This document shows, in pieces, positions 11,190 to 57,114 of a DNA stretch of 64,000 bases (positions within the stretch are counted from its first letter, which is position 1; every line of letters starts with the position of its first letter). The notes under the pieces are model-generated. The model had not been told where the DNA came from, searched no databases, and saw nothing but the letters and a program-made list of their open reading frames with translations. The position numbers were made by a program, and so were the translations under genes. Origin of the DNA: a virus; IMG/VR virus record IMGVR_UViG_3300025682_000001, positions 1 to 64,000 of that record. One strand, written 5' to 3'.

Positions 11190-12926
11190 CTAACCCCTAG
11201 TCAACGCAACATGACGCGCATCGGGGACTAGGATGAACTGCTGGCGTACTTCAATCGTTAAAACCCCGTCGGAGGCTTCAATCATGTCACACGACCCGTC
11301 GAGGTTGTGCCGCATGGCTGATAGCCGCGTAAGGGTGGCATTAGCCACCCCAGGGGCTGATTGTATCGACTCCTCCAGCATGTGCGCGTCTATGCGTTCC
11401 AACACCTGACCGTTGACCGCCCGCGATAATACGTCTCTGATGGTTGTAGGATGCGCCGCGCCAGTGTATTCCGCCTCGACGTATAGCTCGAATGGGGCGT
11501 AACTCTTGGCGAGGTAATCATCAGTCACGTTTCGCGAGGTATCGCTGTCGAGAATTGCCTGCGCACTCGCCACGGCAGGCTCGGTGTAGTAATTCACCCT
11601 GACGTTACTGCCTATCACGCCGGCAAAGTTGAGATAGCACGAGTCACGCGTGGAGAACCTCAGGCTAGGGTTTTTAACCCCGAATGACCAATGCTCGATT
11701 GGCGTGAGAATAATCCCCGTAGGCTCGCCCTGCGCGTCTAGTAGCTGAATGTTCTCTATCCACAGGATGGGCCACGCTATCTCTCCGTGGATATGCAGAT
11801 TGCGCGGCGATATGCTTTCCGTAGCGTCAACGTTGTAAATGTCAAACGACGCCGCCGAGGGATTAGAGCCCGTCTTGATGTAGATATCGCCCATACCGCC
11901 TACATGACCGCCACGCGAGTTCCAACTTTCGGCATAGATGTAATCCACGCCGATAGTGCTATCCACGCTATTGGTAAAAGAACTAGGATAACGCGAGACG
12001 AGCAATACCTGCGCCAGATTGGCTGAAGCTCCGGAGGCAACGCCTAGGTACTTAAGCGTGTCTAAATCATAAGCCTCAAGCATGATGTTATCCGCAAAGC
12101 CGCCCGGGCCGTTGGTATGACCGTCGAACCAATCCCATCGCGAGGCTTGATAATTCCACACATACATGTCAATACCGTATTGGGCATAAGACGTGTTTGG
12201 ATCATACCCCTCGGCGTAGGCATAAGCCCTAACGGCAAACGGCTGCTCGAAGTCTTTACACACCAGGCGGTAATAACTTACAGCATGCCGCGGGTCGTGA
12301 TAACTCACCCCGATGTCGTCCCAATCCCAGAAATAGCTATCAGTCTTGCTGCAGGAGACGCCGACGTAATCACCCTGCGATTGCGGAGTGTAAGCTCCAA
12401 AGGTCAGGCTGGGCTCCAGGGGCATACTACCGGATTCATCCCAAATCCAGAAAGTCAACGCATTGGCCGAGTTGAAGTCTAGCCTGAAGTTGTAAGTCTT
12501 ATCCGCCTCGATATTTACATGACGAGCGGCGAGGTAAGACATCTCGCCCCAGCCGGTGTGGGTGACGTTTTCAAGCACCACCGTGGGGACTGCTAGGGCA
12601 TTGTCCACCACAAACACGTTTAGCATATCAGGATTAGTCGAGGGCCTTAGGGCTATGCCGTATCCGTCATAATAATGCGCAATCGCCTTAGTTACACCCT
12701 GCGGGATATCACGATACGCCGTTATGAATGCTATGCTGGGGATATCCCTGTCGTCAGTTGTCTTAAAGCTCCCCGTGATAGTTGTGCCCAGGAAGGGAGC
12801 CGTGCCGGGCAATTGACGCATTGCAATCGGAGCGGTATAGGCAAACTCCTGCTCGATAGCCTCCGGGATAAGATCATCCGGAGCATATCCCTCAAGAGCA
12901 CCACTTTCGGATATGACTATTGCCAC
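11190..12926 (-). CDS. Hypothetical protein (578 aa), probable virion protein
   Basis: Long ORF, tightly packed. Beta-rich. Confidence 0.6.
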   Translation of the reverse strand: MAIVISESGALEGYAPDDLIPEAIEQEFAYTAPIAMRQLPGTAPFLGTTITGSFKTTDDRDIPSIAFITAYRDIPQGVTKAIAHYYDGYGIALRPSTNPDMLNVFVVDNALAVPTVVLENVTHTGWGEMSYLAARHVNIEADKTYNFRLDFNSANALTFWIWDESGSMPLEPSLTFGAYTPQSQGDYVGVSCSKTDSYFWDWDDIGVSYHDPRHAVSYYRLVCKDFEQPFAVRAYAYAEGYDPNTSYAQYGIDMYVWNYQASRWDWFDGHTNGPGGFADNIMLEAYDLDTLKYLGVASGASANLAQVLLVSRYPSSFTNSVDSTIGVDYIYAESWNSRGGHVGGMGDIYIKTGSNPSAASFDIYNVDATESISPRNLHIHGEIAWPILWIENIQLLDAQGEPTGIILTPIEHWSFGVKNPSLRFSTRDSCYLNFAGVIGSNVRVNYYTEPAVASAQAILDSDTSRNVTDDYLAKSYAPFELYVEAEYTGAAHPTTIRDVLSRAVNGQVLERIDAHMLEESIQSAPGVANATLTRLSAMRHNLDGSCDMIEASDGVLTIEVRQQFILVPDARHVALTRG

Positions 12927-14077: not shown

Positions 14078-15358
14078 CTACTGAAATCTACCATGAGATT
14101 CCAAGCTCGGTTCCTGCATCTTCGAGGCTGCTTGCGATACTGCTGCAAGTCTTACGTCGCTCTCCGCAGGCGTTTGCCTTTCGGCCTGTTCCCGCCGAAC
14201 TGGCGGTACAGCCAAACTCTTTAGATTTAGCGCCGCATTCAAATCCCTGTCCAACACAGCGCCACAATCACAAGTCCATTCTCGGTCAGACAATTTCAGT
14301 TCCGAATTGATACATCCGCAGTGTCGGCATAGACGCGATGATGGAAAGAATCTATCCGCAAGCATCAATTCCGAGCCATACCAGACACTTTTGTATTCTA
14401 GTTGTCTACGAAACTCGGCGAATCCAACATCGCTTATTGCCTGTGCCAAACAGTGATTTGCCAACATACCAGACACGTTCAGGTCTTCCAGGACGATCAT
14501 ACTTGGTCGCTCGCTATCGGGCTTGGATTTCGCCACGATAGCCGATGTAGCCTTGTGCAAGCTGTCACGTCGGATGTTAGCTATTCTTTGGTGTACTTTT
14601 GCAACTTTCTTCCGTGTCTTTTCTCGGTTCTTGCCACCTTTCTTTCGTCTTGATAGTTCGCGCTGGAGTCGCTTTAACTTCGCTTGTGCTTTCTTCAACG
14701 GTTTCGGGTTCTCGAATCTTGTCTCATCACTGGTCACAGCCAAGTCTTTGATACCCAAGTCAACGCCTACAGGTTCTCTGGTTGCCTGAGTAACTTCTAT
14801 TTCCTGTCGGCATTGAACGCTAACAAACCAACGACCAGCAGATTCGGAAACCGTAACAGACAAGATATGGATACCGTCAATTGGAATGTAGCCATGCTCC
14901 TTTAGCCTCAGCCATCCAATACGAGGGAACTTGATTTGGTCATTCTCAACATGGATAGCTCCGGTAAGCCTAAAGCTACCAATACCGTTCTTGCGACTTT
15001 TGAATTTTGGAAAGCCCGGTTTCTCGCCAGCCTTCACTCGGCGGAAGAAGTTCTGATACGCCTTGTCCAAATCGCGTAAGGCTTCTTGGGGGGCTGCCTT
15101 GCTGACCTCGTACAACCAGGGGAAATCCGTCTTTTTTAGCGCGTTCAATTGCCGATGCTGCTCGATAGCATTGCTCGATTTGTTTGTTTCCTCATATTCT
15201 TGCTTTCGCCGTGCAAGTCCCCAGTTCCAGGCAAATCGAGTAGCGCCCGCGTGTTTCAGTAAAGCAGTTCGCTGAACATTATTTGGGTCAAGTTCGACCT
15301 TATATGCTCTAAGAATTTCCACTGGCCTTTTTCCTTCGCTCGGCTGAACGCTTCCCAT
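14078..15358 (-). CDS. tnpB: TnpB (IS605 OrfB family, RuvC-type RNA-guided nuclease)
   Basis: VGVDLGIKDLAV, MIVLEDLNVSGM, DRDLNAALNL. Zn finger CRHCG...CDCG. Confidence 0.9.
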   Translation of the reverse strand: MGSVQPSEGKRPVEILRAYKVELDPNNVQRTALLKHAGATRFAWNWGLARRKQEYEETNKSSNAIEQHRQLNALKKTDFPWLYEVSKAAPQEALRDLDKAYQNFFRRVKAGEKPGFPKFKSRKNGIGSFRLTGAIHVENDQIKFPRIGWLRLKEHGYIPIDGIHILSVTVSESAGRWFVSVQCRQEIEVTQATREPVGVDLGIKDLAVTSDETRFENPKPLKKAQAKLKRLQRELSRRKKGGKNREKTRKKVAKVHQRIANIRRDSLHKATSAIVAKSKPDSERPSMIVLEDLNVSGMLANHCLAQAISDVGFAEFRRQLEYKSVWYGSELMLADRFFPSSRLCRHCGCINSELKLSDREWTCDCGAVLDRDLNAALNLKSLAVPPVRREQAERQTPAESDVRLAAVSQAASKMQEPSLESHGRFQ

Positions 15359-20152: not shown

Positions 20153-20546
20153 CCGTAAGTTTCACCGCGCGAAGATCCAGCTCGACCTGTTGTCGAGCGA
20201 GCAGTTACTCTACCACAGCGTGGCGGACCTGATGCGTGCGGTTGAGAACGGCGTCGTGATCAGGTTACCCGGTGAGAACTTATACTCTGATGTCGATGCA
20301 AAGCAGGCGGCAAAGCTACTCAAGGACGCCGACATCTCGCCTGAGGTTGTCGGCCTCACTAAGGATGGGGCAGACCTGAACTCAGTGCTGGGGCTTGACT
20401 GGCATATAGTGGGCTCACCGGCGGAGTGCAACTGGGTGGCATTCGCTGGACTAGTCGATGGGGACACTCTTCAGATTCGTGTTCGCCCTATCGACTATGA
20501 CGATGAAGTCGGCGAAAAGGAGGCGTGCAATGCACGCATGGTATGA
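20142..20546 (+). CDS. Hypothetical protein, paralogue of the previous gene
   Basis: 134-aa ORF overlapping its neighbour by 11 nt. Confidence 0.6.
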   Translation: MSSDRKFHRAKIQLDLLSSEQLLYHSVADLMRAVENGVVIRLPGENLYSDVDAKQAAKLLKDADISPEVVGLTKDGADLNSVLGLDWHIVGSPAECNWVAFAGLVDGDTLQIRVRPIDYDDEVGEKEACNARMV

Positions 20547-20805
20547 TTCTGCTACCAACCCTTGGTGTGGTGTGCAAAACACCACACCATGGGACGGACT
20601 TCTCCCCCGGATGGGGGAGATTATATTCTTCTCCGCCCGCCCCCGGGCGGAGGCCACCCAATGGGGGTGGCTCTCCTGCGAAGTAGATGACGCAGGAGAA
20701 TATTACAACTTCGGTCCCGCAGGATGCGGGATCGAAGAATCTAGGAATCTAACCGAAGAAGAGGCCTGGCTCATCATCGAAACCCTCCGCTCCGTAATGG
20801 AGTAG
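20530..20805 (+). CDS. Hypothetical protein (about 91 aa)
   Basis: ATG at 20530 preceded by AAAGGAGG. The longer track ORF (20458) overlaps the previous gene. Confidence 0.55.
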   Translation: MHAWYDSATNPWCGVQNTTPWDGLLPRMGEIIFFSARPRAEATQWGWLSCEVDDAGEYYNFGPAGCGIEESRNLTEEEAWLIIETLRSVME

Positions 20806-20812
20806 GAGGGGG

Positions 20813-20855
20813 AAACCACCGACCCGATTGGGGGCTCCGGTGGTTTTTTATTTTC
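20813..20855 (+). terminator. Rho-independent terminator
   Basis: AAACCACCG-(16-nt loop)-CGGTGGTTT followed by a T-run. Confidence 0.8.
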
Positions 20856-20858
20856 CAC

Positions 20859-20888
20859 TTGACAAGACGGGTGTTTATGCGTTATAAA
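20859..20888 (+). promoter_or_regulatory. Sigma-70-like promoter (TTGACA-N17/18-TATAAA) containing the recurring ATGCGTTATAAAC motif
   Basis: TTGACA at 20859-20864. TTATAA/TATAAA at 20882-20888. Lies 41 nt upstream of the next start codon. Confidence 0.6.
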
Positions 20889-20929
20889 CATGGCGATGCG
20901 CGTGTTAGTCTTAAACCGAGGAGGAGCGC

Positions 20930-24132: not shown

Positions 24133-24326
24133 CAGATTACGCAAAGATCGCATGGCGGCCGGGAGACGTTCAAAGCCTGGCGCCACAACTGAGCGATCAA
24201 CGGGCGGAAGAGTTCTTGCGGCGCAATGAGAAGCGCATACAGGACGCGTTGATAAGTCATGGCCATGTTGTTATCGAAGCCCTGCTGACTGAAGCGGGGA
24301 TAGCCACAGGCGACGACGAAGAGTAA
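24129..24326 (+). CDS. Hypothetical protein (65 aa)
   Basis: ATG at 24129 overlaps the previous stop (ATGA) and is preceded by GGAGG. Confidence 0.5.
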   Translation: MTDYAKIAWRPGDVQSLAPQLSDQRAEEFLRRNEKRIQDALISHGHVVIEALLTEAGIATGDDEE

Positions 24327-24391
24327 ACGAATTGCCCGGCGGGGGTGGTCTCCGCCGGGCGGGTGCGAGAACGACCAAAGCAACGAGTCAT

Positions 24392-24423
24392 GCCCGGCAG
24401 GCCCATCGCCTGCCGGGCTTTCT
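24392..24423 (+). terminator. Rho-independent terminator (second of two similar GC hairpins)
   Basis: GCCCGGCAGG-cccatcg-CCTGCCGGGC followed by TTTCT. A similar hairpin at 24333-24359 lacks a T-tail. Confidence 0.65.
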
Positions 24424-24454
24424 AAACGAAAACTCGGATGTGACAGGAGGAGAG

Positions 24455-24625
24455 ATGCCTGATCTATGGCAGGAGTGTACCTGTGACGACACGCTCAGAT
24501 GCAGTCTCGAAGACTACAAGCAGCTCGAGCGGAAGCTCGAAGCTAGTGCGGAATTATCCGGCCATGGCTTCGAGATAGGGGGCAATCACATTGAAGGCAT
24601 AATGGTCGGCGTTGGAAATACTTAG
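24455..24625 (+). CDS. Hypothetical protein (56 aa)
   Basis: ATG at 24455 after CAGGAGGAG. The upstream part of the track ORF covers the terminator hairpins. Confidence 0.5.
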   Translation: MPDLWQECTCDDTLRCSLEDYKQLERKLEASAELSGHGFEIGGNHIEGIMVGVGNT

Positions 24626-24723
24626 CTGGTTGAACGAAAAACAAGCAATACCGCCAAGGGTAAGCGGCGGCGCTGTTTGCCGTCCGCTTGACCCGCTGGT
24701 TATGCGATTTTTGGAGGTTACAC

Positions 24724-25032
24724 ATGAGACATTATCAAAACACGTTGACCGGTGAAGTAGTCAGCGAGGACGAGTACAGCTATGCAGCGGCCCAGAAAGG
24801 GAATTGGGTGCTGTATCCCAAAATACCGCGATACACGATAGAGACGCCGCCATATGCTGCCGGGAGAACCGAGTTTAACGAAGACGGGAAACTTTGTTAT
24901 TGGGACGATGTGAAAGACATCGTTCGCGAGTTGGAAGAATTAAAGGCCGCCGTGATCGCAAGTTTGATTCTACTCCCGAAAGATAATGACGGAAAGCGGT
25001 TGCTGGAAGACGCGCTTAAGTTTAGCGCATAA
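24724..25032 (+). CDS. Hypothetical protein (102 aa)
   Basis: ATG at 24724 after GGAGG. Confidence 0.55.
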   Translation: MRHYQNTLTGEVVSEDEYSYAAAQKGNWVLYPKIPRYTIETPPYAAGRTEFNEDGKLCYWDDVKDIVRELEELKAAVIASLILLPKDNDGKRLLEDALKFSA

Positions 25033-25593: not shown

Positions 25594-25754
25594 GACGCAC
25601 GAGCTGATCCCAACTTGCGGGGAACGCTACCGCGAGCTTGAGCGTTACGGCAGCCATGAGATGCGGATGCTATCGTGGGAAATAGCGCGCCACCTGGGCG
25701 AGCTAGACGATGAAGAGATATCGGACTGAGTGGCTTTTAAAAGAACCAACCCGT

Positions 25755-25857
25755 GGGGGCTCTGGTTCTTTGCAAGCCCTTGCACTCTCCATGGCCCGCG
25801 CTGCCACGCGGGCTAATCTCGGGGCTGGCTGACAAGGTGTCGGCCGGCCCCAACCTC
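25755..25857. repeat. 103-bp direct repeat, copy 1 (upstream of the RCC1-repeat gene)
   Basis: Identical base for base to 26721-26823. Similarity extends about 15 nt further left with mismatches. Contains GC hairpins (GCCCGCG-ctgcca-CGCGGGC). Confidence 0.95.
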
Positions 25858-25889
25858 CTCCGCCATGGCAGGGGCGGAAAGGGGATGAG

Positions 25890-26699
25890 ATGGATACGAC
25901 CCTCGGCCTGAAGTCGAATGGTTCCATAGCCGCATGGGGGGATAACTACTCCGGCCAGTGCGACGTCCCCTCGCCCAACAGCGGTTTCAAAGCGGTTGCG
26001 GCGGGAGGGTTTCACAGCCTCGGCCTGAGGAACGACGGTTCCATAGTCGCGTGGGGGAATAATTACGAAGGCCAGCGCCACGTTCCCTCGCCCAACAGCG
26101 GTTTCATCGCGGTAGCGGCGGGAAGGTATCACAGCCTCGGCCTGAGGGACGACGGCTCCATAGTCGCGTGGGGGGAGAATGACGACGGCCAGTGCGACGT
26201 CCCCTCGCCCAACAGCGGTTTCATCGCCGTCGCGGCGGGAGCGGGTCACAGCCTCGGACTGAGGGACGACGGCTCCATAGCCGCATGGGGGGATAACTAC
26301 TCCGGCCAGTGCGACGTCCCCTCGCCCAACAGCGGTTTCAAAGCGGTTGCGGCGGGATGGGATCACAGCCTCGGCCTGAGGAACGACGGCTCCATAGCCG
26401 CATGGGGGGGGAACGAATACGGTCAGTGCGACGTCCCCTCGCCCAACAGCGGTTTCATCGCGGTAGCGGCGGGAAATGATCACAGCCTCGGCCTGAGGTC
26501 TGATGGCTCCATAGTCGCGTGGGGATGTAACGGCAACGGCCAGTGCGACGTCCCCTCGCCCAACAGCGGTTTCATCGCAGTCTCGGGGGGAGTGGACCAC
26601 AGCCTTGGCCTGAGAAACGACGGCTCCATAGCCGCATGGGGTTTGAACGACGAAGGCCAGTGCGACGTTCCCTATCCCAACAGCGGTTTCAGAGCGTAG
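25890..26699 (+). CDS. RCC1-repeat (seven-bladed beta-propeller) protein
   Basis: Seven 39-aa repeats of HSLGLR.DGSI.AWG.N..GQCDVPSPNSGF.AVAAG, with a 117-nt DNA periodicity. RBS AAGGGGA. Confidence 0.85.
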   Translation: MDTTLGLKSNGSIAAWGDNYSGQCDVPSPNSGFKAVAAGGFHSLGLRNDGSIVAWGNNYEGQRHVPSPNSGFIAVAAGRYHSLGLRDDGSIVAWGENDDGQCDVPSPNSGFIAVAAGAGHSLGLRDDGSIAAWGDNYSGQCDVPSPNSGFKAVAAGWDHSLGLRNDGSIAAWGGNEYGQCDVPSPNSGFIAVAAGNDHSLGLRSDGSIVAWGCNGNGQCDVPSPNSGFIAVSGGVDHSLGLRNDGSIAAWGLNDEGQCDVPYPNSGFRA

Positions 26700-26720
26700 G
26701 GGAAAAGCACCGACCCGATT

Positions 26721-26823
26721 GGGGGCTCTGGTTCTTTGCAAGCCCTTGCACTCTCCATGGCCCGCGCTGCCACGCGGGCTAATCTCGGGGCTGGCTGACA
26801 AGGTGTCGGCCGGCCCCAACCTC
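26721..26823. repeat. 103-bp direct repeat, copy 2 (downstream of the RCC1-repeat gene)
   Basis: Identical to 25755-25857. Confidence 0.95.
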
Positions 26824-26871
26824 TGGTGTATTTTTTACTAAACCATACCGTGCTTGTGTTATAAATATAAT

Positions 26872-27405
26872 GGAGACAGGAGCCGGCCTGACATGGTGTC
26901 AGGGATAGGGACTCCCGACCGGGTGAAAGGCCCGTCTCGGCAACCCGCGAGTATGTGTGAGGTGCTCCAGCCACACTGAAAGCGGGTATGGGCCGGTTTT
27001 AAGGTTGGTGGGCGGGCTGGCATACGCCAGCCCGCCAGCTGCCTCGGGGGCTAAAGTGCTCAAGCCCGAGGTCCATGTGGCACCACAAACTGCATGGATC
27101 ATCTGGAGAAGGCGGCGGGCCAAGCCGCGTGGTTTGTGGAGGAGCGACGGGGCCCCATCCCTGTTGCTCAAGCCCCATCGGCCCATCGGTATTACGCCGG
27201 ACCCGTCTGGGCGGGCAACCGGCTTTGAGCTGCGGCGAGACCTTAACCCGCAGACGGCGCGTCCGTTAAGGCGCTGCGAAAAACTTAACGGCGAGAGGCG
27301 GAGGGGCCACGGGAGCTCCCGCTCTCTCGACATCCAGGTTAGCCCCTACCCGTGGTGGGGCTAACCACCTCTTGGGGGGCCGGCTAATAACCGGCCCCTC
27401 TTTTT
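26872..27405 (+). ncRNA. Candidate large structured non-coding RNA (about 530 nt), class unassigned
   Basis: No credible ORF. Extended -10-like promoter TGtTATAAAtATAAT at 26857-26871. Intrinsic terminator at 27376-27405. Many long perfect helices: 27011-27021/27026-27036, 27337-27346/27357-27366, 27083-27090/27132-27139, 26881-26888/26991-26998. Confidence 0.5.
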
Positions 27406-27640
27406 ATAACCTAACGATTTCAAGAACGCTCCACTTTGGAGAGTAACGAATTAAGATGTGGATATGGTCTTTGTCTATCTCTTGTTCAATAATTTGCCAA
27501 CTATAACGATTAGATATAGATTCGATTTCAGTTTTAATATCATCACCAACTTTTAATAATAACTTTTTTCGATACTTGCAAACAAATATTAAATGGCACA
27601 TAAGCAAATGTTTGCTGTGGTTTTCAGAAATATATTCCAT
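27404..27640 (-). pseudogene. tnpA: Truncated IS200-type Y1 (HUH) transposase TnpA (78 aa, C-terminal part missing)
   Basis: HLIFVCKYRKKLL and HUH motif DHIHILI are present. The ORF stops after SVLEIVRL, before the region that carries the catalytic Tyr in full-length TnpA. The truncation point coincides with the GC-rich junction. Confidence 0.75.
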
Positions 27641-27774
27641 TACTTTTCTAAGCCTTTTCGAATTAGTTCGTAAACAGCACCTGAAAAACTTTCAATACTA
27701 TTCTTTTTTTGATATTCCTCAATCCTCACTACTAAATCGACAGGAAACTTAATTAATTTTGGTACACGTTCCAT
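27640..27774 (-). CDS. Small ribbon-helix-helix-like protein (44 aa) upstream of tnpA
   Basis: MERVPKLIKFPVDLVVRIEEYQKKNSIESFSGAVYELIRKGLEK. RBS GGAGTG. Its stop overlaps the tnpA ATG (TAATG). Below the ORF-track cutoff. Confidence 0.45.
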   Translation of the reverse strand: MERVPKLIKFPVDLVVRIEEYQKKNSIESFSGAVYELIRKGLEK

Positions 27775-27807
27775 TTGTATCACACTCCTTTAAAAAAGTA
27801 TATACTA

Positions 27808-27836
27808 TTGACATATACTAATACTTCATATATACT
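27808..27836 (+). promoter_or_regulatory. Sigma-70-like promoter for tnpB (TTGACA-N17-TATACT), embedded in GTATATAC-type palindromes
   Basis: Read directly. AGTATATACT / TATAGTATATAC repeats flank it. Confidence 0.6.
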
Positions 27837-27867
27837 TATAGTATATACAAAAAGGAGGTGAAAATCA

Positions 27868-28986
27868 ATGATAGTAAATAAGGCATATAAATTTAGAATC
27901 TATCCAAATAAAGAACAAGAAATATTAATTAACAAAACATTTGGTTGTTCCCGATTTGTATTTAATCATTTTTTAGCAAAACGGGACAATACTTACAAAG
28001 AAACAGGAAAATGTTTAACTTACAATTCTTGTTCTGCTCAGTTAACACAACTAAAAAAAGAATTAACTTGGCTAAAAGAAGTAGATAGTATTGCAATTCA
28101 ATCATCGTTGAAAAATCTTGCTGACGCTTATTCTCGTTTCTTTAAGAAACAAAACGATAGACCACGTTTTAAGTCCAAGAAAAATCCTGTTCAGTCTTAC
28201 ACGACAAAGCATACAAATGGCAATATTGCTATTGATGGTAATAAAATCAAATTGCCGAAACTTGGATGGATTCGTTTTGCTAAAAGTCGAGAAGTTGAAG
28301 GTCGCATTTTAAATGTAACCATTAGACGAAATCCAAGTGGTAAATACTTTGTATCTATTTTAGTTGAAACAGAAGTTCAAGAATTATCTAAAACTAATTC
28401 TGCTATTGGAATTGATGTAGGATTAAAGGATTTCGCTATTTTGTCTAATGGAACGACTTATGCAAATCCTAAATTTTTCCGTAAATTAGAAGAAAAATTA
28501 GCAAAAGCACAACGTATTCTTTCTAGACGTACAAAAGGTAGTTCTAATTGGAATAAACAACGAATTAAAGTTGCTCGTATTCATGAAAAAATCACAAACA
28601 CAAGAAACGATTACTTGCATAAAATCTCTACCGAAATTATCAAAAACCACGATATTATCGGTATAGAAGATTTGCAAGTAAGTAATATGTTGAGAAATCA
28701 TAATCTTGCAAAAGCGATTAGTGAAGTATCTTGGTCACAATTTAGAACGATGTTGGAATATAAAGCTAAATGGTATGGAAAACAAGTAGTTACCGTAGCT
28801 AAAAACTTCCCATCCAGTCAACTTTGTTCTTGTTGCGGCTATAAAAATAAAGACGTTAAAAATCTCGGATTACGTGAATGGGAATGTCCTAATTGTCATA
28901 CCCACCATGACCGAGATATTAACGCAAGTTTAAATCTTCGCAAGGAAGCCTTGCGATTAACCGTAGGAACTACGGGGATAGCCTAA
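27868..28986 (+). CDS. tnpB: TnpB (IS605 OrfB family, RuvC-type RNA-guided nuclease)
   Basis: [11 protein letters not shown]...[42 protein letters not shown]. Zn finger CSCCG...CPNC. RBS AAAGGAGGTG. Confidence 0.9.
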
Positions 28987-29049
28987 TCAATTAGAGTTCG
29001 ATAGAACTCTGTACTTAGGAATCCACTATGGCTTTAGCCTAGTGGTAGT
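28870..29049 (+). ncRNA. Putative TnpB omega/right-end RNA scaffold (extent approximate)
   Basis: By analogy with characterised TnpB systems, the guide RNA derives from the tnpB 3' end plus the right end. Hairpins seen at 28993-29010 (AGAGTTC-gata-GAACTCT) and 29023-29045. Confidence 0.35.
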
Positions 29050-29241
29050 TCAATTTACTCCTCCCAAACGCGCGCTAGGTATTACCTGCAATAGCGTGGG
29101 ACAATTCTCGTCGGCCACCAGCACCAGTCGACTTAGCAGCTCGGATGGCTGATTGCCACGCCATACCACAACATTGCCATCTGCGGACACTCTGATAGTG
29201 GTGTCGGTATCTTCAACCTCGATCGCTAGCTTATCGCTCAT
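29050..29241 (-). CDS. Hypothetical protein (63 aa), last gene of the baseplate block
   Basis: ATG overlaps the stop of the J-like gene (ATGA). Confidence 0.5.
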   Translation of the reverse strand: MSDKLAIEVEDTDTTIRVSADGNVVVWRGNQPSELLSRLVLVADENCPTLLQVIPSARLGGVN

Positions 29242-30374
29242 GATATCGTCGCCCTCTTCCAGTCTTCAGCTCCTAGGCGGAGCTTGCCCTCGCGTGTGAT
29301 GTAAATGCTGTTGCCGTATATCTTCTGCCCATAGGGCTGGCCGCTATCAGTCCATATCCATTTGCCGGGGTCGAAGCTAGCCTTGTTGGAGTCAAATCCA
29401 TCGAAGATGATCTCCCCGCCATGTGCAGTGGCAAGGACTAGATCCTCCACGCCTAGCGCTGAGTAGTTTTCTTGATCCGCCTCCTCCAAATCTTCGACTA
29501 GGTCTTTCGGATTTGGCAGGCCAAAGGAACCGGCTGGTGGTGCTAGCAGCGATCCGAAGTAAGCTTCGCTAGGATTGTATAAGCTATTGCCGCGTGTCTT
29601 GCGTGCGAAGTCAACCCTGACATATGGCAGTCCCGAGCCTGGCATGACTTCATGCATAAGGTCACGCTGCATTGCTGGATCGCCAAAACCGACGACGTCT
29701 ATCTCGAGAATCGTGGGCAGCGCGTCTCTCAGCGTGGTCTCTGCGCTAGCAGCGGTGATGATAAGCTGGCGGGTATTGACCGACTCGGTAATGCGTCTGC
29801 CGAATGCGGCGTTGTCTTCTCTTTTAACCCCCTGAGTAAAGGCGTGTTGATTAGTGATGCTAGTCCATGGCGCGTAGAATGCGCTCTCGATATCAGTAAT
29901 AGCCCCCACGCCGACATTGTACTCTTCACCAGAAGCTTCAGCCACAACGGTGATGTCACAGTAATAGCGGCTGCCCTCGCGCTGACTGCGCATGCGGTTT
30001 TCGCTGAAGGAGTACTCGTTATCGGCGACGAATCTCAAGCCATTATTGGATAGAACTCTAAAGCCGACCGGGATGGACACCGCCGTGGGCTCGCTGAAGT
30101 AGATGCGCACCCGGCCGGTAGCGATCCCTCCCGGAGAGCGTGATAGCAGCCAAATACTAGCATAGGCGTCTACCAGGCTGTCAGGCAGATCAACCCAATT
30201 GGACACGGCGTAATTGCCTAGATGCCGCGATAGTTTGCTGAATAAGTCATACGCCAGGATACAGAACGCCTTGATGAGCAAATCATACGCGCCAGTGCCC
30301 TCGCGGAATGCAACATTAGGGAAATACTCCTGTGCATATCGCGTGGCGTAATTTAGGATTGCATCGTATTTCAT
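29238..30374 (-). CDS. Baseplate J-like protein (P2 gpJ / T4 gp6-type family)
   Basis: LVDAYASIWLLSRSPGGIATGRVRIYFSEPTAVSIPVGFRVLSNNGLRFVADNE matches the Baseplate_J pattern (Ld-la--gl-R--g--A-G-v-f----v-ip-G--v----g--f). Start trimmed to the ATG at 30374 after GGAGG. Confidence 0.6.
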   Translation of the reverse strand: MKYDAILNYATRYAQEYFPNVAFREGTGAYDLLIKAFCILAYDLFSKLSRHLGNYAVSNWVDLPDSLVDAYASIWLLSRSPGGIATGRVRIYFSEPTAVSIPVGFRVLSNNGLRFVADNEYSFSENRMRSQREGSRYYCDITVVAEASGEEYNVGVGAITDIESAFYAPWTSITNQHAFTQGVKREDNAAFGRRITESVNTRQLIITAASAETTLRDALPTILEIDVVGFGDPAMQRDLMHEVMPGSGLPYVRVDFARKTRGNSLYNPSEAYFGSLLAPPAGSFGLPNPKDLVEDLEEADQENYSALGVEDLVLATAHGGEIIFDGFDSNKASFDPGKWIWTDSGQPYGQKIYGNSIYITREGKLRLGAEDWKRATIS

Positions 30375-30847: not shown

Positions 30848-32673
30848 ACCACGCCTTGCAGTTCGGTGATCTCTGCTATTCTAGCCTCGACTTCGCTGAT
30901 GCGATTAGTGATGGCCATGAAGGCTTTAAACTGAAATGCCGGCAGGCTAATAGCCGTGCGATTGGCCACCACATCCTCAGCCTCTACTTCTCCTAGTATA
31001 GCATTAACTCGTAAAGCGATAGAAGAGTCATCCAGCATACGCGCCACGGAATTACTTATACACTCCACGGCGAGGCTAGTCAGGCCTAGCTCTGTAACGG
31101 AAAGGTGCAGCAGCCCTTCTAGTTGACCAGTCTCTAAATACCTCACCGCGCCCATCCATCCGGCATTGGTGAGCAGGTCTTTGATGTAATAGTACTGCGG
31201 ATCCTCATAGTCGTGGAACCCGTCAAGCAGCTTGATGCAGCGCCTGTCGCTGCGCTTAACGTTGCGTATCATATTACGCAGATCTTGAAACCGACGATTC
31301 CATGATGCGTGGGCTGATAGCAGCTCTTCAAGATGCCCCACGGTCATGATAAACGTCTCCAGCATAATCCCCAGGCGGGTTATTGTGAAGTCATACTCGC
31401 TGAGTGATCTAACGCGATCGTTGGGCTGATGGGGGTATACTATATAGTTCAACTCATCCGAGCCCTGCATGGTCCCGGATACAACGTTAATCCCAAATGG
31501 GTCAGGCAGCGCCCCTAGGCCGGCCAGCATCAGGACGTTGGTCCTCAGATCATTGCGCCACTGCATGTTATACATAGGCGCAACCGCGCGGCGCTCGTTT
31601 TCAACTACGTCTTTCATCTGGCCAAATATGGTGAAGAGCGAGTCGTGCACGTGTTCGAGCACGGTATCGCTCACCGCGAAATCGCCACCCAGCCCCAGGA
31701 GTGGCGTGCTGGCGGACGAGGTGCGCATACGGTTGAGCGTTTCAGCGCCCAGGATGATAAACGTTTGCCATCCTTGAATGCGGCCGGAAATGCGGAATAG
31801 GCAGTTGTAATCTTCTTTTAGCTCGCCGAGAAGATCCGCCACGGCATGCAAGTCCTCCATGAAGGGCTCGCCAATCTGTCGCCGGAATGACCACTCGAAG
31901 GGGCGATTAGGCGCCTGGCCGGTTATGCCCTTGAGCTGATCGCCTATCTCGGTCATGAATTCGTTGAATACGTCATCGCTTGATAGCAATCTCCAGGCGA
32001 GCAGCATTTTGTTTTCAGCACGCCCTAGGCGTTGAGCATCCCATGAGCCGGCATTGGCGTCTATCCTGGCATTCTGGACTTCGCGGTCTGCATCACGCAC
32101 GGCCCTTGAAGCGGCTATGACATTCTCGCAGAATTTCTTCCACCAATCGTACTGCGCTAGGGCGTCGATGTGTGCTTGCAGCTCGGATAGCTTAAGCTCT
32201 ATCTGTTGCAGGAGCAGGGCTCTGTTATTGAGCTCGTCTTTTAGGTTGTTGACCATGTTCTGTATCGCGGCGAGTAGCAGTGGCTGGAAATAGCGTGATA
32301 TCTCTGCCTTGATGAAAACCCAAAGCGTGGATGCAAAGTCCCCGTGCCCACCTAGCGCGCCTTTTACATCCTGATAGCCGCCCTCGAGCAGGCTAGTCAG
32401 GCCGTCAACTATCGCACGGAAGATGCTCCCGCCGGCTTCTGACATGTCAACGCCTTGCTCGAGGACGTATCGCGCTAGCGCGAGGAAAGACCGCCCGGCG
32501 CTTTGTAGATTAGCCCTAAGCCCGTCATGGCGCAGGATGCTAGCATCTAGCAGGCTAGTAAAAAAACAGCTGTAGAAGCAGATATCGCCTGCAACTTGAT
32601 TGAACGACTCGAGTGTTGCTCTCCCGAGATACTTAGCGGGCACGCCAGAGTCGCACTGGATTCCTATTGGCAT
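30838..32673 (-). CDS. Hypothetical protein (611 aa), helical
   Basis: Long ORF. Its ATG overlaps the stop of the sigma-like gene (TAATG). Confidence 0.6.
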   Translation of the reverse strand: MPIGIQCDSGVPAKYLGRATLESFNQVAGDICFYSCFFTSLLDASILRHDGLRANLQSAGRSFLALARYVLEQGVDMSEAGGSIFRAIVDGLTSLLEGGYQDVKGALGGHGDFASTLWVFIKAEISRYFQPLLLAAIQNMVNNLKDELNNRALLLQQIELKLSELQAHIDALAQYDWWKKFCENVIAASRAVRDADREVQNARIDANAGSWDAQRLGRAENKMLLAWRLLSSDDVFNEFMTEIGDQLKGITGQAPNRPFEWSFRRQIGEPFMEDLHAVADLLGELKEDYNCLFRISGRIQGWQTFIILGAETLNRMRTSSASTPLLGLGGDFAVSDTVLEHVHDSLFTIFGQMKDVVENERRAVAPMYNMQWRNDLRTNVLMLAGLGALPDPFGINVVSGTMQGSDELNYIVYPHQPNDRVRSLSEYDFTITRLGIMLETFIMTVGHLEELLSAHASWNRRFQDLRNMIRNVKRSDRRCIKLLDGFHDYEDPQYYYIKDLLTNAGWMGAVRYLETGQLEGLLHLSVTELGLTSLAVECISNSVARMLDDSSIALRVNAILGEVEAEDVVANRTAISLPAFQFKAFMAITNRISEVEARIAEITELQGVVCG

Positions 32674-33632
32674 TACTGTACTCCGGACAGAGCTCTAGTC
32701 CACCTGCGCCGCCATGCGTAAATATCAGCGGCGGTAACGCCTAGGTCTTTAGCCAGGTCTTCGGCGAGAAGGTGTCCGCCGCGATGCGAGAATAGCTTAT
32801 CGAAAGCCTGCCGCTCCTTGCCCTCTAGCTGAGAGCGCAGATAGATGGCCCTGTCGTCTAGCTTAGAGCGCGCGTTATCTATAAACTGCTCTTCGTGTTC
32901 GGAGACATTGCTAGAAGCTAGCATGGATTGCGTCTTAGCCGCCCGGATACGCTGGATATGATTAAGCGGCATTTTCATATACTCGGCCATTTCGGCATCA
33001 TTTGGCGTACGCCCGAGATTGTCGGCCAAAGCTTGCTGTGCCGCCTCATAGCGCCCGAACTCCTTAGAGAGAAACTCGGGGACATAGGAGACGTTTTGAT
33101 ACTGCTTGACGAACCTGTCCAGCGGCCGGATTTGATTCATCACATACGTGCTCAGCTTGGACTTAGTCGGGTCATACTTACCCAGAGCATCCCGCGCCAG
33201 CATCATGCTTTTATGCATCAGTATATTGTACGGGATGGGGTATTGTGTATATTTATTCAATACGTGCTTGAAGAGTGGAGTCAGGGAGTCGAGCAGGTCT
33301 TCCACGTATTGGTCATTGCCCGTCTTCTGCCATTGACGCCATAGCTCAAGCTGACGCTCGTGCAGGCTCGCCGGCGCTCCGGCGGGCTCTTCGATGGGCA
33401 TATCCGGCATTAAGTCGTCGTCTAGGTCCATATTAAGCTCAGGCATGTCTAGGCCGGGAACGGGCTCGTCGGGCTCGTCTAGCAAGTCGTCATCGTCATA
33501 GTCTGCCGCCGTTTTGGTCAACCTATCGTAAAGCGCTTCAGCAATGGGCCGGACTATTTCTCCTGAGATAACTCCGCGCCGACCGCGGAATCCGCGCTTG
33601 ACTAAAGCATCGACGAAACTCTTCTTATCCAT
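32673..33632 (-). CDS. Sigma-70 family RNA polymerase sigma factor (group 3/4-like) with an acidic N-terminal region
   Basis: Region 2: LMHKSMMLARDALGKYDPTKSKLSTYVMNQIRPLDRFV. Region 3: LADNLGRTPNDAEMAEYMKMPLNHIQRI. Region 4: LEGKERQAFDKLF...LAEDLAKDLGVTAADIYAWRRRWTRAL. ATG at 33632 after GGAGAG (the track ORF starts at the GTG at 33644). Confidence 0.7.
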   Translation of the reverse strand: MDKKSFVDALVKRGFRGRRGVISGEIVRPIAEALYDRLTKTAADYDDDDLLDEPDEPVPGLDMPELNMDLDDDLMPDMPIEEPAGAPASLHERQLELWRQWQKTGNDQYVEDLLDSLTPLFKHVLNKYTQYPIPYNILMHKSMMLARDALGKYDPTKSKLSTYVMNQIRPLDRFVKQYQNVSYVPEFLSKEFGRYEAAQQALADNLGRTPNDAEMAEYMKMPLNHIQRIRAAKTQSMLASSNVSEHEEQFIDNARSKLDDRAIYLRSQLEGKERQAFDKLFSHRGGHLLAEDLAKDLGVTAADIYAWRRRWTRALSGVQ

Positions 33633-33633
33633 G

Positions 33634-35751
33634 TCACTCTCCACCTAAGATATCGGGATTGAGGCGTGTTAGCGGATTAACCTCCAGGTCTTCTGGGGAG
33701 ACTAGCAGGTCTAAAGCCTCCGTTGGCCCGCGTGCAATGTTAATGCCGAAGTACATGTTAGCCGCTATTTCAGTGTAGCATTCCTGGCGCTCTTTGCAAA
33801 ACGCCCCGGCAATGCGTGCGTCATTAGGAATAGTAGCGCCAACCTCTAGCCCTAGCTCTTCCATGTTGCGCAGGGTGACACTATTAGTTTTTAGCGAGTA
33901 ACCACCCGAGGCGATGAACTCGTCGCTAGACATATCCGCTCCGTGGAAGTCAACCATGACTTGCTTAACGCTCTGCGTGATGCGCTTGCCGTAGTTGTAG
34001 GCGTAAATCTCGGGATACTCACATCCGGAATACTCATCCCACAGCAGGTCGATGGCGTTCTTGATAGCATACTTGTCCTGCTTAGCCGCCTTAACCTCAG
34101 CCTCGGTCATCTCGGGGTCGTTGTAGAGGTGCTTGAGGATTGACATGTCATCCCGCTCTTCTGTGTTGATGTACTCTAGCGAGGTTTGATATCTCCCCAG
34201 CAGGGCTGGGTAAACGTATATCCCAACATTTTCCGGCTTATACATATCATCAAACCACGTATCGCTAGCATAGTCCGGCGTGGGCTCGTCATAAGGCCTG
34301 ACGTTAGTAATGGCCTGATAGAGTGTATAGCACCCCGAGTCAATATCTAGCACATGCCGGATGCTCTCCAGGAATCCTACATAGTGACACCCATTGCGCG
34401 CGAGTACTGCCACGGGAAATCCGGGGACAGGTTTAAGATTTAACGGACATCCATGCGCTCCACCGCCTATGGCTAGGGAGCATGATGCGTAAACCTGAGC
34501 CAGGAAAGACTGAGCACTGAAGGCCTTGACGTAATCAGAGCCCATGTCCTTGATGTACTCCGGCCGGTTATAGCTCAATGCGCTCATTACGATGCCGCGA
34601 TAGCACTCCTCCGGAGTGGCGTGCTGCTTCCCGTGCGCCCTGAGCCCTTCTCGGAAATCCTCCGGGAAATAGATGGCGTTGGAGTTATAGTTTTCACTTA
34701 ACGCGCCTGTCCCGCCTATGCGGCCTATACCTCGAGTTGGCCGTTGGGTAGGAGTATCTCCGAGGCTCAGCGTATCATATTGACTGGGCAGAATCACATT
34801 GCATCTCGGTGGCGGCGCGAATGGCATTTGGGGCATGAAGAGCATGTCATTCATGATGAGCTCATCAGGGTTATCAATAGACAACGACCCCACTCCCCCC
34901 TCGGGGGCGGTCATTTCCGTGGGGATAAACTCCGCATCTGGCTCGTCAATCCCGCCATACTTAGCGTTGATAAAAGACGGAGCTGGAACGTTAATGGCAA
35001 GGTATCTAATGAGATTCATGACGTGTAGCACTATCGCGGCAATAGGCTGACGACTCGATGATGCGCCTATGGTTTTATCTAGCAATACGCCCAGCTTAGT
35101 GGCGTCGAAATACCCCATGGCCTTTGAGTTGTCCTGCACGACAATGCTGTGGTCTAAGTTGAGCAGTTTCCATGTCAGATTGCAGGCCTGATTAGAGTTC
35201 AAGCCGGCGTCTTGCAGAAGCTCCTTAATCCCGCGAGCTAGTCCGTGCTGCTTAAGCTTACTGACTATTGAGCTAGTCTGACTTGTCCCGCTGCGGCTCC
35301 CCCAGTTTTCGCTGCTCATCGACAGGCCGCGGGACGTCTCGATCATATACGTCGCGACTTCTTGCATGAAGTAATTAGACCCCACGGCCATGATGACGGG
35401 GAAAGTGCCTTCTTTAGAAGTGACCAGTTGATACGAATATAGCCTTGCGGAGCCGATAAAAGATGTCTCGCCTAGCGCTTCATCTTCAACGAAGACATGG
35501 AATAGCGTCTTAGGCTGAATGCCCGATAGGGTATAGGTTGCCCTAATAGGTAATCCGGTCTCTTCATCCTTTTCAGAACCGTCAGCCGCCTTGATGACGC
35601 ATTTGCTAATCCAGCGCGGATCTGGGGGTAATACTATCTGAAAGACAGATTTACCGTTAGTGGCAAAATCGCATGTCACACGCCTCACGGGCATGCGCAC
35701 ACCCTCAACGTATACGATGGGGCGTTGTTTGCGGGCTATCATGCCTAACAC
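33634..35751 (-). CDS. Baseplate hub-like protein (gpD/Mu gp44-like), tentative
   Basis: 705-aa ORF positioned between the tape-measure-proximal genes and the W/J-like genes. The N-terminal beta-rich start (PIVYVEGVRMPVRRVTCDF) is hub-like. The call rests on position only. Confidence 0.35.
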   Translation of the reverse strand: MLGMIARKQRPIVYVEGVRMPVRRVTCDFATNGKSVFQIVLPPDPRWISKCVIKAADGSEKDEETGLPIRATYTLSGIQPKTLFHVFVEDEALGETSFIGSARLYSYQLVTSKEGTFPVIMAVGSNYFMQEVATYMIETSRGLSMSSENWGSRSGTSQTSSIVSKLKQHGLARGIKELLQDAGLNSNQACNLTWKLLNLDHSIVVQDNSKAMGYFDATKLGVLLDKTIGASSSRQPIAAIVLHVMNLIRYLAINVPAPSFINAKYGGIDEPDAEFIPTEMTAPEGGVGSLSIDNPDELIMNDMLFMPQMPFAPPPRCNVILPSQYDTLSLGDTPTQRPTRGIGRIGGTGALSENYNSNAIYFPEDFREGLRAHGKQHATPEECYRGIVMSALSYNRPEYIKDMGSDYVKAFSAQSFLAQVYASCSLAIGGGAHGCPLNLKPVPGFPVAVLARNGCHYVGFLESIRHVLDIDSGCYTLYQAITNVRPYDEPTPDYASDTWFDDMYKPENVGIYVYPALLGRYQTSLEYINTEERDDMSILKHLYNDPEMTEAEVKAAKQDKYAIKNAIDLLWDEYSGCEYPEIYAYNYGKRITQSVKQVMVDFHGADMSSDEFIASGGYSLKTNSVTLRNMEELGLEVGATIPNDARIAGAFCKERQECYTEIAANMYFGINIARGPTEALDLLVSPEDLEVNPLTRLNPDILGGE

Positions 35752-55806: not shown

Positions 55807-56175
55807 ATGGTTGTTTGGTTGCTGTGCGTACTCGAGTTTTTTCTTACAGCGCGCGTGGACACTCACACGGCTAAGTGCTCATGGTATGGCATAGAATGTC
55901 ATGGACGCGAGACGGCCAATCAGGAGATATACAATCGCAAGGAGATGACGTGTGCTCACGTGAATGCCCCATTTGGCTCTATTATCATGGTGCAGCATAA
56001 TGGCAAGAGTATATTTGTGCGCGTGAATGATCGTATCCCTCGACACTATCGCCGGGAGATAGACTTGAGTGAAGTGGCGTTTTCCAGACTTGAAGACCTG
56101 GACATAGGGGTCATTGACGCCACGGTGACAATATGGTATGCTCCCAGGCGAGAATTAATTTTCTTCTGGCCGTAA
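55807..56175 (+). CDS. RlpA-like double-psi beta-barrel protein (lytic transglycosylase-like), N-terminal signal/TM
   Basis: AKCSWYGIECHGRETANQEIYNRKEMTCAHVNAPFGSIIMVQHNGKSIFVRVNDRIPRHYRREIDLSEVAF matches the RlpA pattern G-ASWYG--fhG--TAnGe-y----mTAAH--LPfg--v-V-N--NGksv-VrvNDRGP----R-iDLS. Confidence 0.75.
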   Translation: MVVWLLCVLEFFLTARVDTHTAKCSWYGIECHGRETANQEIYNRKEMTCAHVNAPFGSIIMVQHNGKSIFVRVNDRIPRHYRREIDLSEVAFSRLEDLDIGVIDATVTIWYAPRRELIFFWP

Positions 56176-56184
56176 GGAGCCGGC

Positions 56185-57114
56185 ATGATAATAACCAACA
56201 CACTAGGCCTGCCCGATGCGTTTGTTAAGGCAGCTAGCACCGGCGCATATCCGCCATCTCTATGGCGGCATAGGGTGAGTCAACTAACCGGCTCAGTCCG
56301 TATGCGCTGGTTTGAGCTAGCACGCTGGGATGAACTGAGGAGCGATGCTTCCGAGCGGCTATGGGCCATCATGGGCACCATGCTACACAACTTCATCGCA
56401 GAGCATTGCGGTGACAACGAGATATCAGAAGAGCGCCTGACCTATCATCATACGATAGGAGAGCGCTCCGTGGCGATATCCGGGCAGGCTGACCTGCTAA
56501 CTCAGATTGGCCCCGATAGCTACAGGCTGACTGACTGGAAGTTCTGCAAGGTAGCAGCGCTGTCTTATGACAAAACTAATTGGCTGATGCAGTTAAGATG
56601 CTATGCGTGGCTGTATAGCCTTGTGGGATTTCCCGTCAAAGAGGCTGAGCTTGTGTTGATCCTGCGTAATAGAGAGGCTTATAAGGCGGCGTTTACATTC
56701 GACTATCCACAATCTGACGTGGTGCGGTATCCTGTCGATCTATGGGATTTTAAAACGGTAGAATCATGGAGCCGAGAGATGTCCGAACGTTTAATCCTAG
56801 CCGATGAATTAGCAGTTGCCGGCGCGCCCGAGGACGAAGTCCCGCCGTGTTCTGATGAAGAGCGGTGGTACACCCCCGAGCGCTGGGCAGCTAAAAAGAA
56901 GCGCGCGACTCGTGCTTCTAGGGTATTTAATAATGAGGCGGATGCAGTGGCGTATATCGCCGCTCGCGAAAAGCCCGAGGATTATGTTATAGATCATAGG
57001 CTGGGTCGCTCCGTGCGTTGTGGTTATTGCGCGGCGCGTCATCTTTGCTCCCAATGGGCCGAGCAGCAGGTGCTGGAATCGGCCGACAACACCGAGGAAG
57101 GAGATAGTGAATGA
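56185..57114 (+). CDS. PD-(D/E)XK nuclease with a Cas4-type Fe-S cysteine cluster (phage exonuclease)
   Basis: GQADLL...LTDWKF (D...DxK). C-terminal C-x2-C-x5-C (CGYCAARHLC) plus an N-terminal Cys (EHCGD). Confidence 0.65.
   Translation: MIITNTLGLPDAFVKAASTGAYPPSLWRHRVSQLTGSVRMRWFELARWDELRSDASERLWAIMGTMLHNFIAEHCGDNEISEERLTYHHTIGERSVAISGQADLLTQIGPDSYRLTDWKFCKVAALSYDKTNWLMQLRCYAWLYSLVGFPVKEAELVLILRNREAYKAAFTFDYPQSDVVRYPVDLWDFKTVESWSREMSERLILADELAVAGAPEDEVPPCSDEERWYTPERWAAKKKRATRASRVFNNEADAVAYIAAREKPEDYVIDHRLGRSVRCGYCAARHLCSQWAEQQVLESADNTEEGDSE

Follow-up and report, generated by a model that had tools for sequence, protein, structure and literature searches.

A G+C-rich unit between an RCC1-repeat gene and an insertion sequence

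The DNA analyzed here is a 64-kb window (positions 1 to 64,000 of IMG/VR record IMGVR_UViG_3300025682_000001) from an uncultivated digester phage. The window is a phage-like genome of ~53% G+C, as supported by a baseplate J gene (29238-30374, minus strand) and a sigma-like factor (32673-33644), and most of its proteins that were scanned fall in no PHROG family. The subject of this study is a unit on the plus strand, 26872-27405, with a G+C content of 65% versus roughly 50-58% in the flanking phage sequence. A previous examination of the letters alone (the sequence-only reading) had proposed this unit as a candidate large noncoding RNA located between an RCC1-repeat gene and an AT-rich insertion sequence (IS). 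Both neighbors were confirmed: the gene on one side (25890-26699) matches Pfam RCC1_2 (2.5e-68), and the element on the other side (27408-29053, ~30% G+C) is of the IS200/IS605 type, with a shortened tnpA open reading frame (ORF) and a full-length tnpB ORF. Related contigs, labeled L004 to L030, were fetched via called ORFs and neighboring proteins; members of the protein cluster are labeled P00xx.

The unit is preceded on the plus strand by a T-run and conserved upstream promoter element (TTTTTTACTAAA, 26831-26842) and, 17 nt farther on, by an extended -10 promoter box read from the sequence (TGtTATAAAtATAAT, 26857-26871), in which TG (26857-58) and TATAAA (26860-65) are followed by TATAAT. 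The upstream element occurs once in the window, with 0.02 occurrences expected, and is also found with the 17-nt spacing at the syntenic site of contig L009 and in an extra cassette of L017 and L023. The extended -10 box is conserved in the same three contigs and is retained in two strains (L006 and L007) that carry a 63-nt deletion farther downstream. From the predicted start, a transcript of ~534 nt (26872-27405) would run to the end of the U-run of an intrinsic terminator (27374-27405), which consists of a stem of 10 pairs, 9 of them G-C (27374-27400), and U5. This terminator has the top score within 20-31 kb. On the minus strand the same hairpin is followed by CCAAGAGG and not by a U-run. 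In strains free of the IS, the terminator is immediately adjacent to the stop codon that ends a convergent gene of 63 amino acids (aa), the last of the baseplate operon. The framing of the unit by an extended -10-like box and a strong terminator, as initially proposed, was thus upheld.

Strand-specific folding of the unit

The minimum free energy (MFE) of the plus strand of the unit was -278.9 kcal/mol, versus -239.3 ± 6.1 kcal/mol for dinucleotide shuffles (z = -6.49), while the reverse strand gave a z score of -2.58. G·U pairs account for 20 of the 184 pairs of the plus-strand fold, and the asymmetry between the strands depends on them. In a background scan of 118 windows of 534 nt over the 64 kb (mean z, -1.0; standard deviation, 1.6), the unit ranked second; the top-ranked window contains the tnpB 3' end, a place at which a guide RNA would be expected. 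Two other stretches, 24201-24734 on the minus strand (z = -5.3) and 56101-56634 on the plus strand (z = -4.9), also fold unusually well, and long ORFs span both. Since these two ordinary regions reach about -5, the z score of the unit is unusual but not unique.

Every helix listed in the sequence-only reading was found. These are a perfect 11-bp hairpin with the loop AUAC (27011-27036), identical in all aligned strains; a perfect 10-bp hairpin just before the terminator (27337-27366); a 7-bp hairpin with a TGG loop (26887-26903; CTGACA-TGG-TGTCAG); a helix of ~11 bp (27082-27139) that includes a perfect 8-bp segment (27083-27090/27132-27139) and encloses another hairpin (27112-27128); and an 8-bp helix with one G·U pair (26881-26888/26991-26998). 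The last helix and the hairpin at 26887-26903 overlap by two bases, and hence the two compete. The plus strand also contains an 11-bp hairpin (27142-27169) that in some strains carries a structure-preserving double deletion, a 6-bp hairpin with a variable loop (27230-27253), and a perfect 8-bp hairpin (CCGUUAAG/CUUAACGG, 27263-27291).

By our own count, in which each stem was counted once per allowed loop size and the shuffles were treated alike, the unit has 7 perfect stems of at least 8 bp versus 0.20 expected. A stem of at least 11 bp arose in 0.3% of 2000 shuffles, and the excess of long perfect hairpins was significant (P < 0.001). Within the 3' 200 nt, the base pairs in perfect stems exceed those of all 678 phage coding windows. 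The 5' multi-helix domain of ~292 nt (26872-27163), which is noncoding under every hypothesis considered, gave a z score of -4.0 when folded alone. The heavy structure initially described was therefore confirmed for the plus strand, by the z scores, the rank among background windows, and the excess of perfect stems. Two self-complementary runs are present within the RNA, a 10-nt palindrome (GGGAGCUCCC, 27311-27320) and GCCGGCC/GGCCGGCC (26883-26890), and these could support RNA-RNA dimerization or merely form local hairpins.

The strand asymmetry bears on whether the unit might operate as DNA, for example, as an origin of replication, as a site of packaging, or as a hairpin-rich target for the insertion of IS200/IS605 elements. 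The IS200/IS605-type insertion falls precisely where the terminator ends, and in contigs of the L011 group the region of the genome that roughly corresponds carries repeats that look like iterons. However, folding is strongly strand asymmetric, with the share of G·U pairs given above; neither iterons nor an AT-rich unwinding stretch was found in the unit; a promoter and a terminator frame it; and the IS is missing from most strains. We consider a DNA-level element very improbable.

The two long ORFs are not genes

Two long ORFs exist in the region (26957-27364, plus strand; 26899-27333, minus strand) and mirror each other. A codon-usage model derived from 28 long genes in the window gave them scores of -0.02 and -0.06 per codon, respectively, versus 0.21 ± 0.05 for real genes and 0.13-0.23 for neighboring small genes. 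Their translations had no Pfam or PHROG match, and searches of 5.8 and 1.84 billion proteins returned only translations of the same locus that were at least 94% identical. One further match, P0011, was rejected as a translated 58-nt satellite repeat with no DNA similarity. In L025 and L026, from two independent samples, three 1-nt insertions or deletions (indels) with a net shift of -1 split both long ORFs, and cluster members P0013 and P0015 have other +1 insertions, with the minus-strand frame shifted too. Noncoding codon usage, the lack of a family or distant homologue, and frames broken in near-identical strains show that the two long ORFs are not genes. Their dismissal in the sequence-only reading is now firmer, and the description of a promoter-to-terminator unit lacking a credible long ORF is borne out by the sequence, the terminator scoring, and the codon scores.

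A 28-codon ORF at 26893 has the only ATG with a Shine-Dalgarno-like run. It was rejected because its start is part of a hairpin loop, it scored -0.12 in codon usage, and it is deleted in L006, L007, and L027. A third frame, of 66 codons (27164-27364, plus strand), is open in all strains and is considered below.

Strain variation and the maintenance of helices

All homologues of the unit that were found are at least 97% identical and belong to one narrow lineage. L025 and L026 lack G27146 and one T of 27164/65, which are both partners of a single G·U pair of the hairpin at 27142-27169, and a perfect 10-bp helix remains after the double deletion. Thus, one helix is maintained by paired changes. 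The third change in these contigs, an inserted G, lies in the loop of the hairpin at 27112-27128. A 6-nt deletion (ACCTTA, 27240-45) shared by L004, L006, L007, P0014, and P0016 is inside the loop of the hairpin at 27230-27253, and in L030 a single-nucleotide polymorphism (SNP), 27289 C>T, converts a G-C pair of the plus strand to G·U in the 8-bp hairpin at 27263-27291. L006 and L007 have lost a 63-nt block (26875-26937) that comprises one whole hairpin (26887-26903) and a predicted second hairpin except its last two bases, with the promoter and the remainder of the unit kept; this block is a dispensable 5' module. When the variants were mapped onto the MFE structure computed from the window only, the results were mixed, because the global fold is not determined.

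Contig L029 diverges from the window after 27322 (about 5880-6117 of L029), starting with CTGTCTCTTATACACATCT, a Nextera adapter. Its divergent 3' end was set aside as that of a chimeric contig, and cluster member P0023 was set aside as an artifact.

The unit is an accessory insertion

The unit occupies the site between a shared bidirectional terminator (26698-26735) and the convergent 63-aa gene. In L008, whose baseplate J protein is 77% identical, the upstream gene, the terminator hairpin, and the homologue of the 63-aa gene follow one another, so that a single bidirectional terminator hairpin and no unit lies between the convergent genes. In L009 (baseplate J, 70%), the same promoter (TTTTTACTAAA, 17 nt, TATAAATATA) is followed by an unrelated 350-nt unit with a terminator. 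The L011 group (baseplate J, 67%) has the site organized differently. Since the flanking elements are adjacent in L008, this comparison of sequences indicates that the unit is an accessory insertion extending from promoter to terminator, and its placement between a shared terminator and a convergent gene suggests that it would be dispensable for the basic phage cycle.

Phage morons are accessory units of promoter, gene, and terminator, inserted at junctions where related phages have two genes side by side, and the classical ones encode proteins. As a promoter-to-terminator insertion between elements adjacent in a relative, the unit fits the definition of a moron, and a different cassette at the same site in L009 adds to the likeness. 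Its own promoter and terminator are recognized at the level of consensus and conservation, through a -10 box conserved in three contexts and the best terminator of the region. A difference from classical morons is that coding-type codon usage or a usable start was seen in no frame; the 66-codon frame is kept in all strains but has noncoding codon usage and no usable ribosome-binding site.

The convergent geometry raises another explanation, in which the plus-strand RNA pairs with a 3' extension of the late baseplate-operon mRNA and sets its stability, or in which the unit serves only as a shield between the two operons. The stop codon of the 63-aa gene directly adjoins the terminator, whose hairpin has no U-run on the minus strand, so late transcripts could read through the unit to the bidirectional terminator at 26698-26735. 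Moreover, the RCC1 gene lies between the copies of a perfect direct repeat of 104 nt (25754-25857 and 26720-26823) with two G+C-rich hairpins. The first hairpin of this repeat, flanked by A- and T-runs, is the sole element between the convergent genes of L008. However, the minus-strand read-through is only predicted, L008 manages without such an element, and an antisense role does not need an elaborate plus-strand fold and leaves the G·U-dependent strand asymmetry and the helix-preserving deletion unexplained. In phage lambda, the OOP RNA acts on cII. The unit resembles OOP-type antisense RNAs as a short independent transcription unit pointing at the 3' end of an operon, but it ends before the neighboring gene, such that overlap needs read-through, and it has about seven times the length and far more structure. 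We regard a cis-antisense or shielding role as quite improbable.

Sister cassettes share the promoter

In L017 and L023, the promoter module lies inside a 1.7-kb insertion that replaces window positions 20516-20685. The cassette (L017, 5300-5960; L023, 5760-6440; both minus strand) consists of a leader, a small ORF, and an endolysin-like gene. The leaders, of 293 and 291 nt, have z scores of -5.2, and comparison of the two revealed 9 compensatory pairs among 87, with none broken; covariation is seen in a stem whose loop, the palindrome UGAUCA, is conserved. After the leader come a ribosome-binding site, an ATG, an ORF of ~100 codons that differs between the two contigs (codon scores, 0.27 and 0.23), and then the endolysin-like gene. 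The leader is possibly a new cis-regulatory RNA carried on a portable expression module.

Leaders and unit have in common the promoter module, which is identical, the initial bases (GGAGA), a length of ~292 nt (291-293 nt for the leaders; 292 nt from the predicted start of the unit to 27164), and a hairpin type, CUGRCA-NGG-UGUCAG. The hairpin at 26887-26903 is of this type and is seen again in the L017 leader and the 104-nt repeat. The two differ in that sequence homology is confined to this hairpin and in what comes next: a ribosome-binding site, then an ATG and an ORF with typical codon usage after the leaders, but only a TTG located in a stem in the unit. Threading of the window RNA onto the consensus structure of the two leaders failed, with many pairs breaking.

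The L009 unit (11390-11800, minus strand) is syntenic to 26872-27405 and has a z score of -3.7 and its own terminator. Its Cys-rich ORF of 60 codons has a coding-like codon score (0.16) but no obvious ribosome-binding site. A scan of viral contigs for the promoter module recovered only L017, L023, and four AT-rich chance matches.

Noncoding RNA or leader with a small gene

The observations above suggest that the unit is a lineage-restricted, noncoding "RNA moron" of ~530 nt that acts in trans as a folded RNA, a reading that holds about half of our confidence. The product is probably a noncoding, highly structured RNA, of which the last third could still encode a tiny peptide. The peptide in question derives from the 66-codon frame at 27164-27364, which starts with TTG and stops 10 nt before the terminator; its translation begins MLKPHRPIGITPDPSGR, giving the peptide (M)LKPHRPIGITPDPSGRATGFELR. 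An alternative is therefore that 26872-27163 is a structured leader to a small gene for this 66-residue Arg/Pro/Gly-rich peptide, and the unit an ordinary protein-coding moron with an ornate mRNA. The hairpin at 27142-27169 buries the start codon and would in this case gate translation, and the first ~292 nt would still be structured noncoding RNA.

Several results count against a noncoding RNA, and part of them favor the small gene. All three other cassettes with the same promoter (L017, L023, and L009) carry small ORFs with coding-like codon usage, those of L017 and L023 in the layout of leader, ribosome-binding site, ATG, and ORF. The ORFs of the sister cassettes are themselves highly structured (z = -4.4 to -4.6), and hairpins are thus no argument against coding in this cassette family. 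Within 27170-27333, four of four placed indel events keep the frame (the 6-nt deletion, an insertion of AGA, +1/-1 in L004, and +1/+2 in L030), while about six of eight indels in the 5' part break it (our own Fisher calculation, p about 0.03); the frame-breaking indels of the 5' domain (26872-27163) are +4, three of +1, the L025 set of +1/-1/-1, and a 128-nt deletion. Of three SNPs in the 3' part, two (27302 A>C and 27289 C>T) leave the encoded residue unchanged in the plus-strand frame. In L025, the single-T deletion leaves an in-frame GTG at the place of the TTG. As to structure, the 3' part folded alone gave only a moderate z score of -2.35, three SNPs break predicted pairs at helix ends, and RNAalifold detected compensatory substitutions in 0 of 173 predicted pairs, as follows from the homologues all being at least 97% identical. 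Finally, the 128-nt deletion (26849-26976, with microhomology CCAYAC), found in contig L027, removes the -10 box and the first ~100 nt.

Against a small gene, the codon score of the 66-codon frame is 0.022, typical of open noncoding frames (mean, -0.02; 0.03 for G+C-rich frames), and a score that low is found in 0.8% of real in-frame 66-codon windows (density ratio, 0.06). The frame has no ATG, its only Shine-Dalgarno-like run (27139-45) is 18 nt upstream, and the TTG is within the 11-bp stem. The composition of the peptide (17% Arg, 12% Pro, and 11% Gly) is that expected from translated G+C-rich noncoding DNA, and no homologue was found among 1.84 or 5.8 billion proteins. AlphaFold2 predicted no fold for the 66 residues (pLDDT, 54; pTM, 0.13), which is uninformative. 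In addition, the variants were mostly fetched through called ORFs, a possible bias that may hide frame-breaking alleles. A leader with a small gene is, in our view, unlikely, although with a substantial chance of being correct.

The large 5' deletions (63 nt in one case and, with loss of the -10 box, 128 nt in another) would also fit a decaying cassette. Such a cassette would once have been a moron made of a leader and a gene, its coding part would since have degenerated, and it would perhaps be transcribed but functionless, with the hairpins as leftovers. Restriction to one narrow lineage, absence or replacement in relatives, and the lack of a remaining coding signal are all consistent with decay. 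On the other hand, the compensated double deletion in a helix and the loop-confined indels point to continuing selection, the G+C content and the perfect hairpins of 8 to 11 bp exceed shuffles and all 678 phage coding windows, and the sequence is nearly invariant over contigs from many samples. We judge decay improbable.

Comparison with known RNA families

An Rfam covariance search of the whole window, the check proposed with the initial description, gave no match to the unit at the gathering score, and at E ≤ 10 a 1.9-kb segment (25600-27500) gave only chance-level matches, such as asX1 and mir-1303. The sister cassettes gave no match (L009) or one at chance level (L017, E = 0.64). Rfam and a tRNA/tmRNA gene search confirmed the absence of RNase P, tmRNA, and intron signatures, and no tRNA or tmRNA gene was found in the 64 kb.

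A tie to GOLLD and ROOL, which the sequence-only reading had mentioned, was not supported. GOLLD and ROOL are phage and prophage RNAs of several hundred nucleotides that are heavily structured, stand-alone, and of unknown function; they are often near tRNA islands and form nanocages, and GOLLD is often longer than 800 nt (PMC12286853). The unit is likewise phage encoded, large, and structured, and its 534 nt are close to the size of ROOL. It differs from GOLLD in this length, in giving no match to the covariance model with its conserved 3' core, and in having no nearby tRNA genes. No match to the ROOL model was obtained either. ROOL assembles into homo-oligomeric cages; for the unit, the palindrome GGGAGCUCCC is the sole lead toward oligomer formation. 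Moreover, GOLLD and ROOL were defined by covariation across many genomes, while the unit comes from one narrow lineage with none. With no match to any Rfam family and no tRNA gene in the window, the unit is, as judged by these searches, neither GOLLD nor ROOL.

Searches for more distant relatives were also negative. DNA similarity searches of 50,697 phage and 72,556 plasmid records found nothing, nor did an exact-pattern scan of viral contigs for the 11-bp hairpin. A scan of viral and metagenome contigs for the terminator-repeat pattern found only near-identical strains. Locus searches guided by baseplate J (viral and genome contigs) and by the translation of the plus-strand ORF (genome contigs) gave no relatives, and nhmmer found no RNA homologue in the relatives with 67-77% identical baseplate J.

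Two specific candidates were rejected. TnpB guide (omega) RNAs of IS200/IS605 elements overlap the tnpB 3' end and the right end of the element and move with it. The unit is located beyond the IS end on the tnpA side and is present unchanged in IS-free L004, L005, L006, L018, L025, and L030, and thus it is not a TnpB guide RNA. As for a CsrA-type sponge, a hand count of ~11 GGA motifs equals the expectation from composition.

A working model for a possible folded-RNA moron

In the model that we favor, the extended -10 promoter (TGtTATAAAT, with the conserved TTTTTACTAAA element 17 nt upstream) would start transcription near 26872. In the folded RNA, multiple helices would make up a 5' domain (26872-27169), with a row of hairpins following in the 3' part (27197-27366), and polymerase would stop at the G+C-rich hairpin and U5 at 27374-27405, abutting the stop codon of the last convergent baseplate-operon gene. 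Firing of the promoter and stability of the RNA are predicted from the sequence. The stable RNA would act in trans, most probably as a protein-binding decoy or scaffold in host takeover or counter-defense, as protein morons do.

Large structured phage RNAs are rare and poorly understood, and GOLLD and ROOL are still without a known function (PMC12286853). If the model is correct, it would suggest that RNA-only genes are exchanged among phages in the way that protein morons are, and the unit would provide a compact ~530-nt object for structural and functional study. A bolder version, to which we assign a low probability, is that the unit is the first member of a new large phage RNA class, a folded-RNA moron serving as a defense or takeover decoy or as a GOLLD/ROOL-like self-assembling particle, with the promoter shared with L017/L023 and L009 marking a family of ornate-RNA modules. 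Given one narrow lineage, no covariation, and the remaining small-peptide reading, the unit is a lead and not an established RNA class.

Neighboring mobile elements and terminator-promoter modules

L006, L007, L018, L019, L025, and L026 have no RCC1 gene and a single copy of the 104-nt repeat. This arrangement, together with the two flanking copies in the window, makes the RCC1 gene look like a cassette gained or lost by recombination at the repeat.

The IS element is inserted right after the terminator U-run (TTTTTAT), with no target duplication. Its tnpA ORF has only 78 codons, with a stop codon formed at the junction, and its tnpB ORF is full length, at 372 codons. As a result of the insertion, the phage 63-aa gene has its stop codon within the IS end. 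The element is absent from L004, L005, L006, L018, L025, L026, L027, and L030. Like the RCC1 gene, it is a strain-specific addition missing from most strains. Elsewhere in the window, transposase-like genes at 146-1411 and 14078-15358 (both minus strand) match phrog_506 (E = 1e-122 and 1e-126), making three in 64 kb, and L025 and L030 carry IS605 OrfB/TnpB-type genes at other positions.

The repeats of L011 are short direct-repeat arrays (ctattct... and ggctataggg...) downstream of the baseplate genes (12340-12900, minus strand); they are iteron-like and may represent a replication origin.

The terminator hairpin at 20807-20890 of the window is related to the one that comes first in the 104-nt repeat region, with changes in both arms that keep pairing, and it is followed by a promoter (TTGACA, 17 nt, TATAAA). 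Terminator-promoter modules of one family thus recur at operon boundaries.

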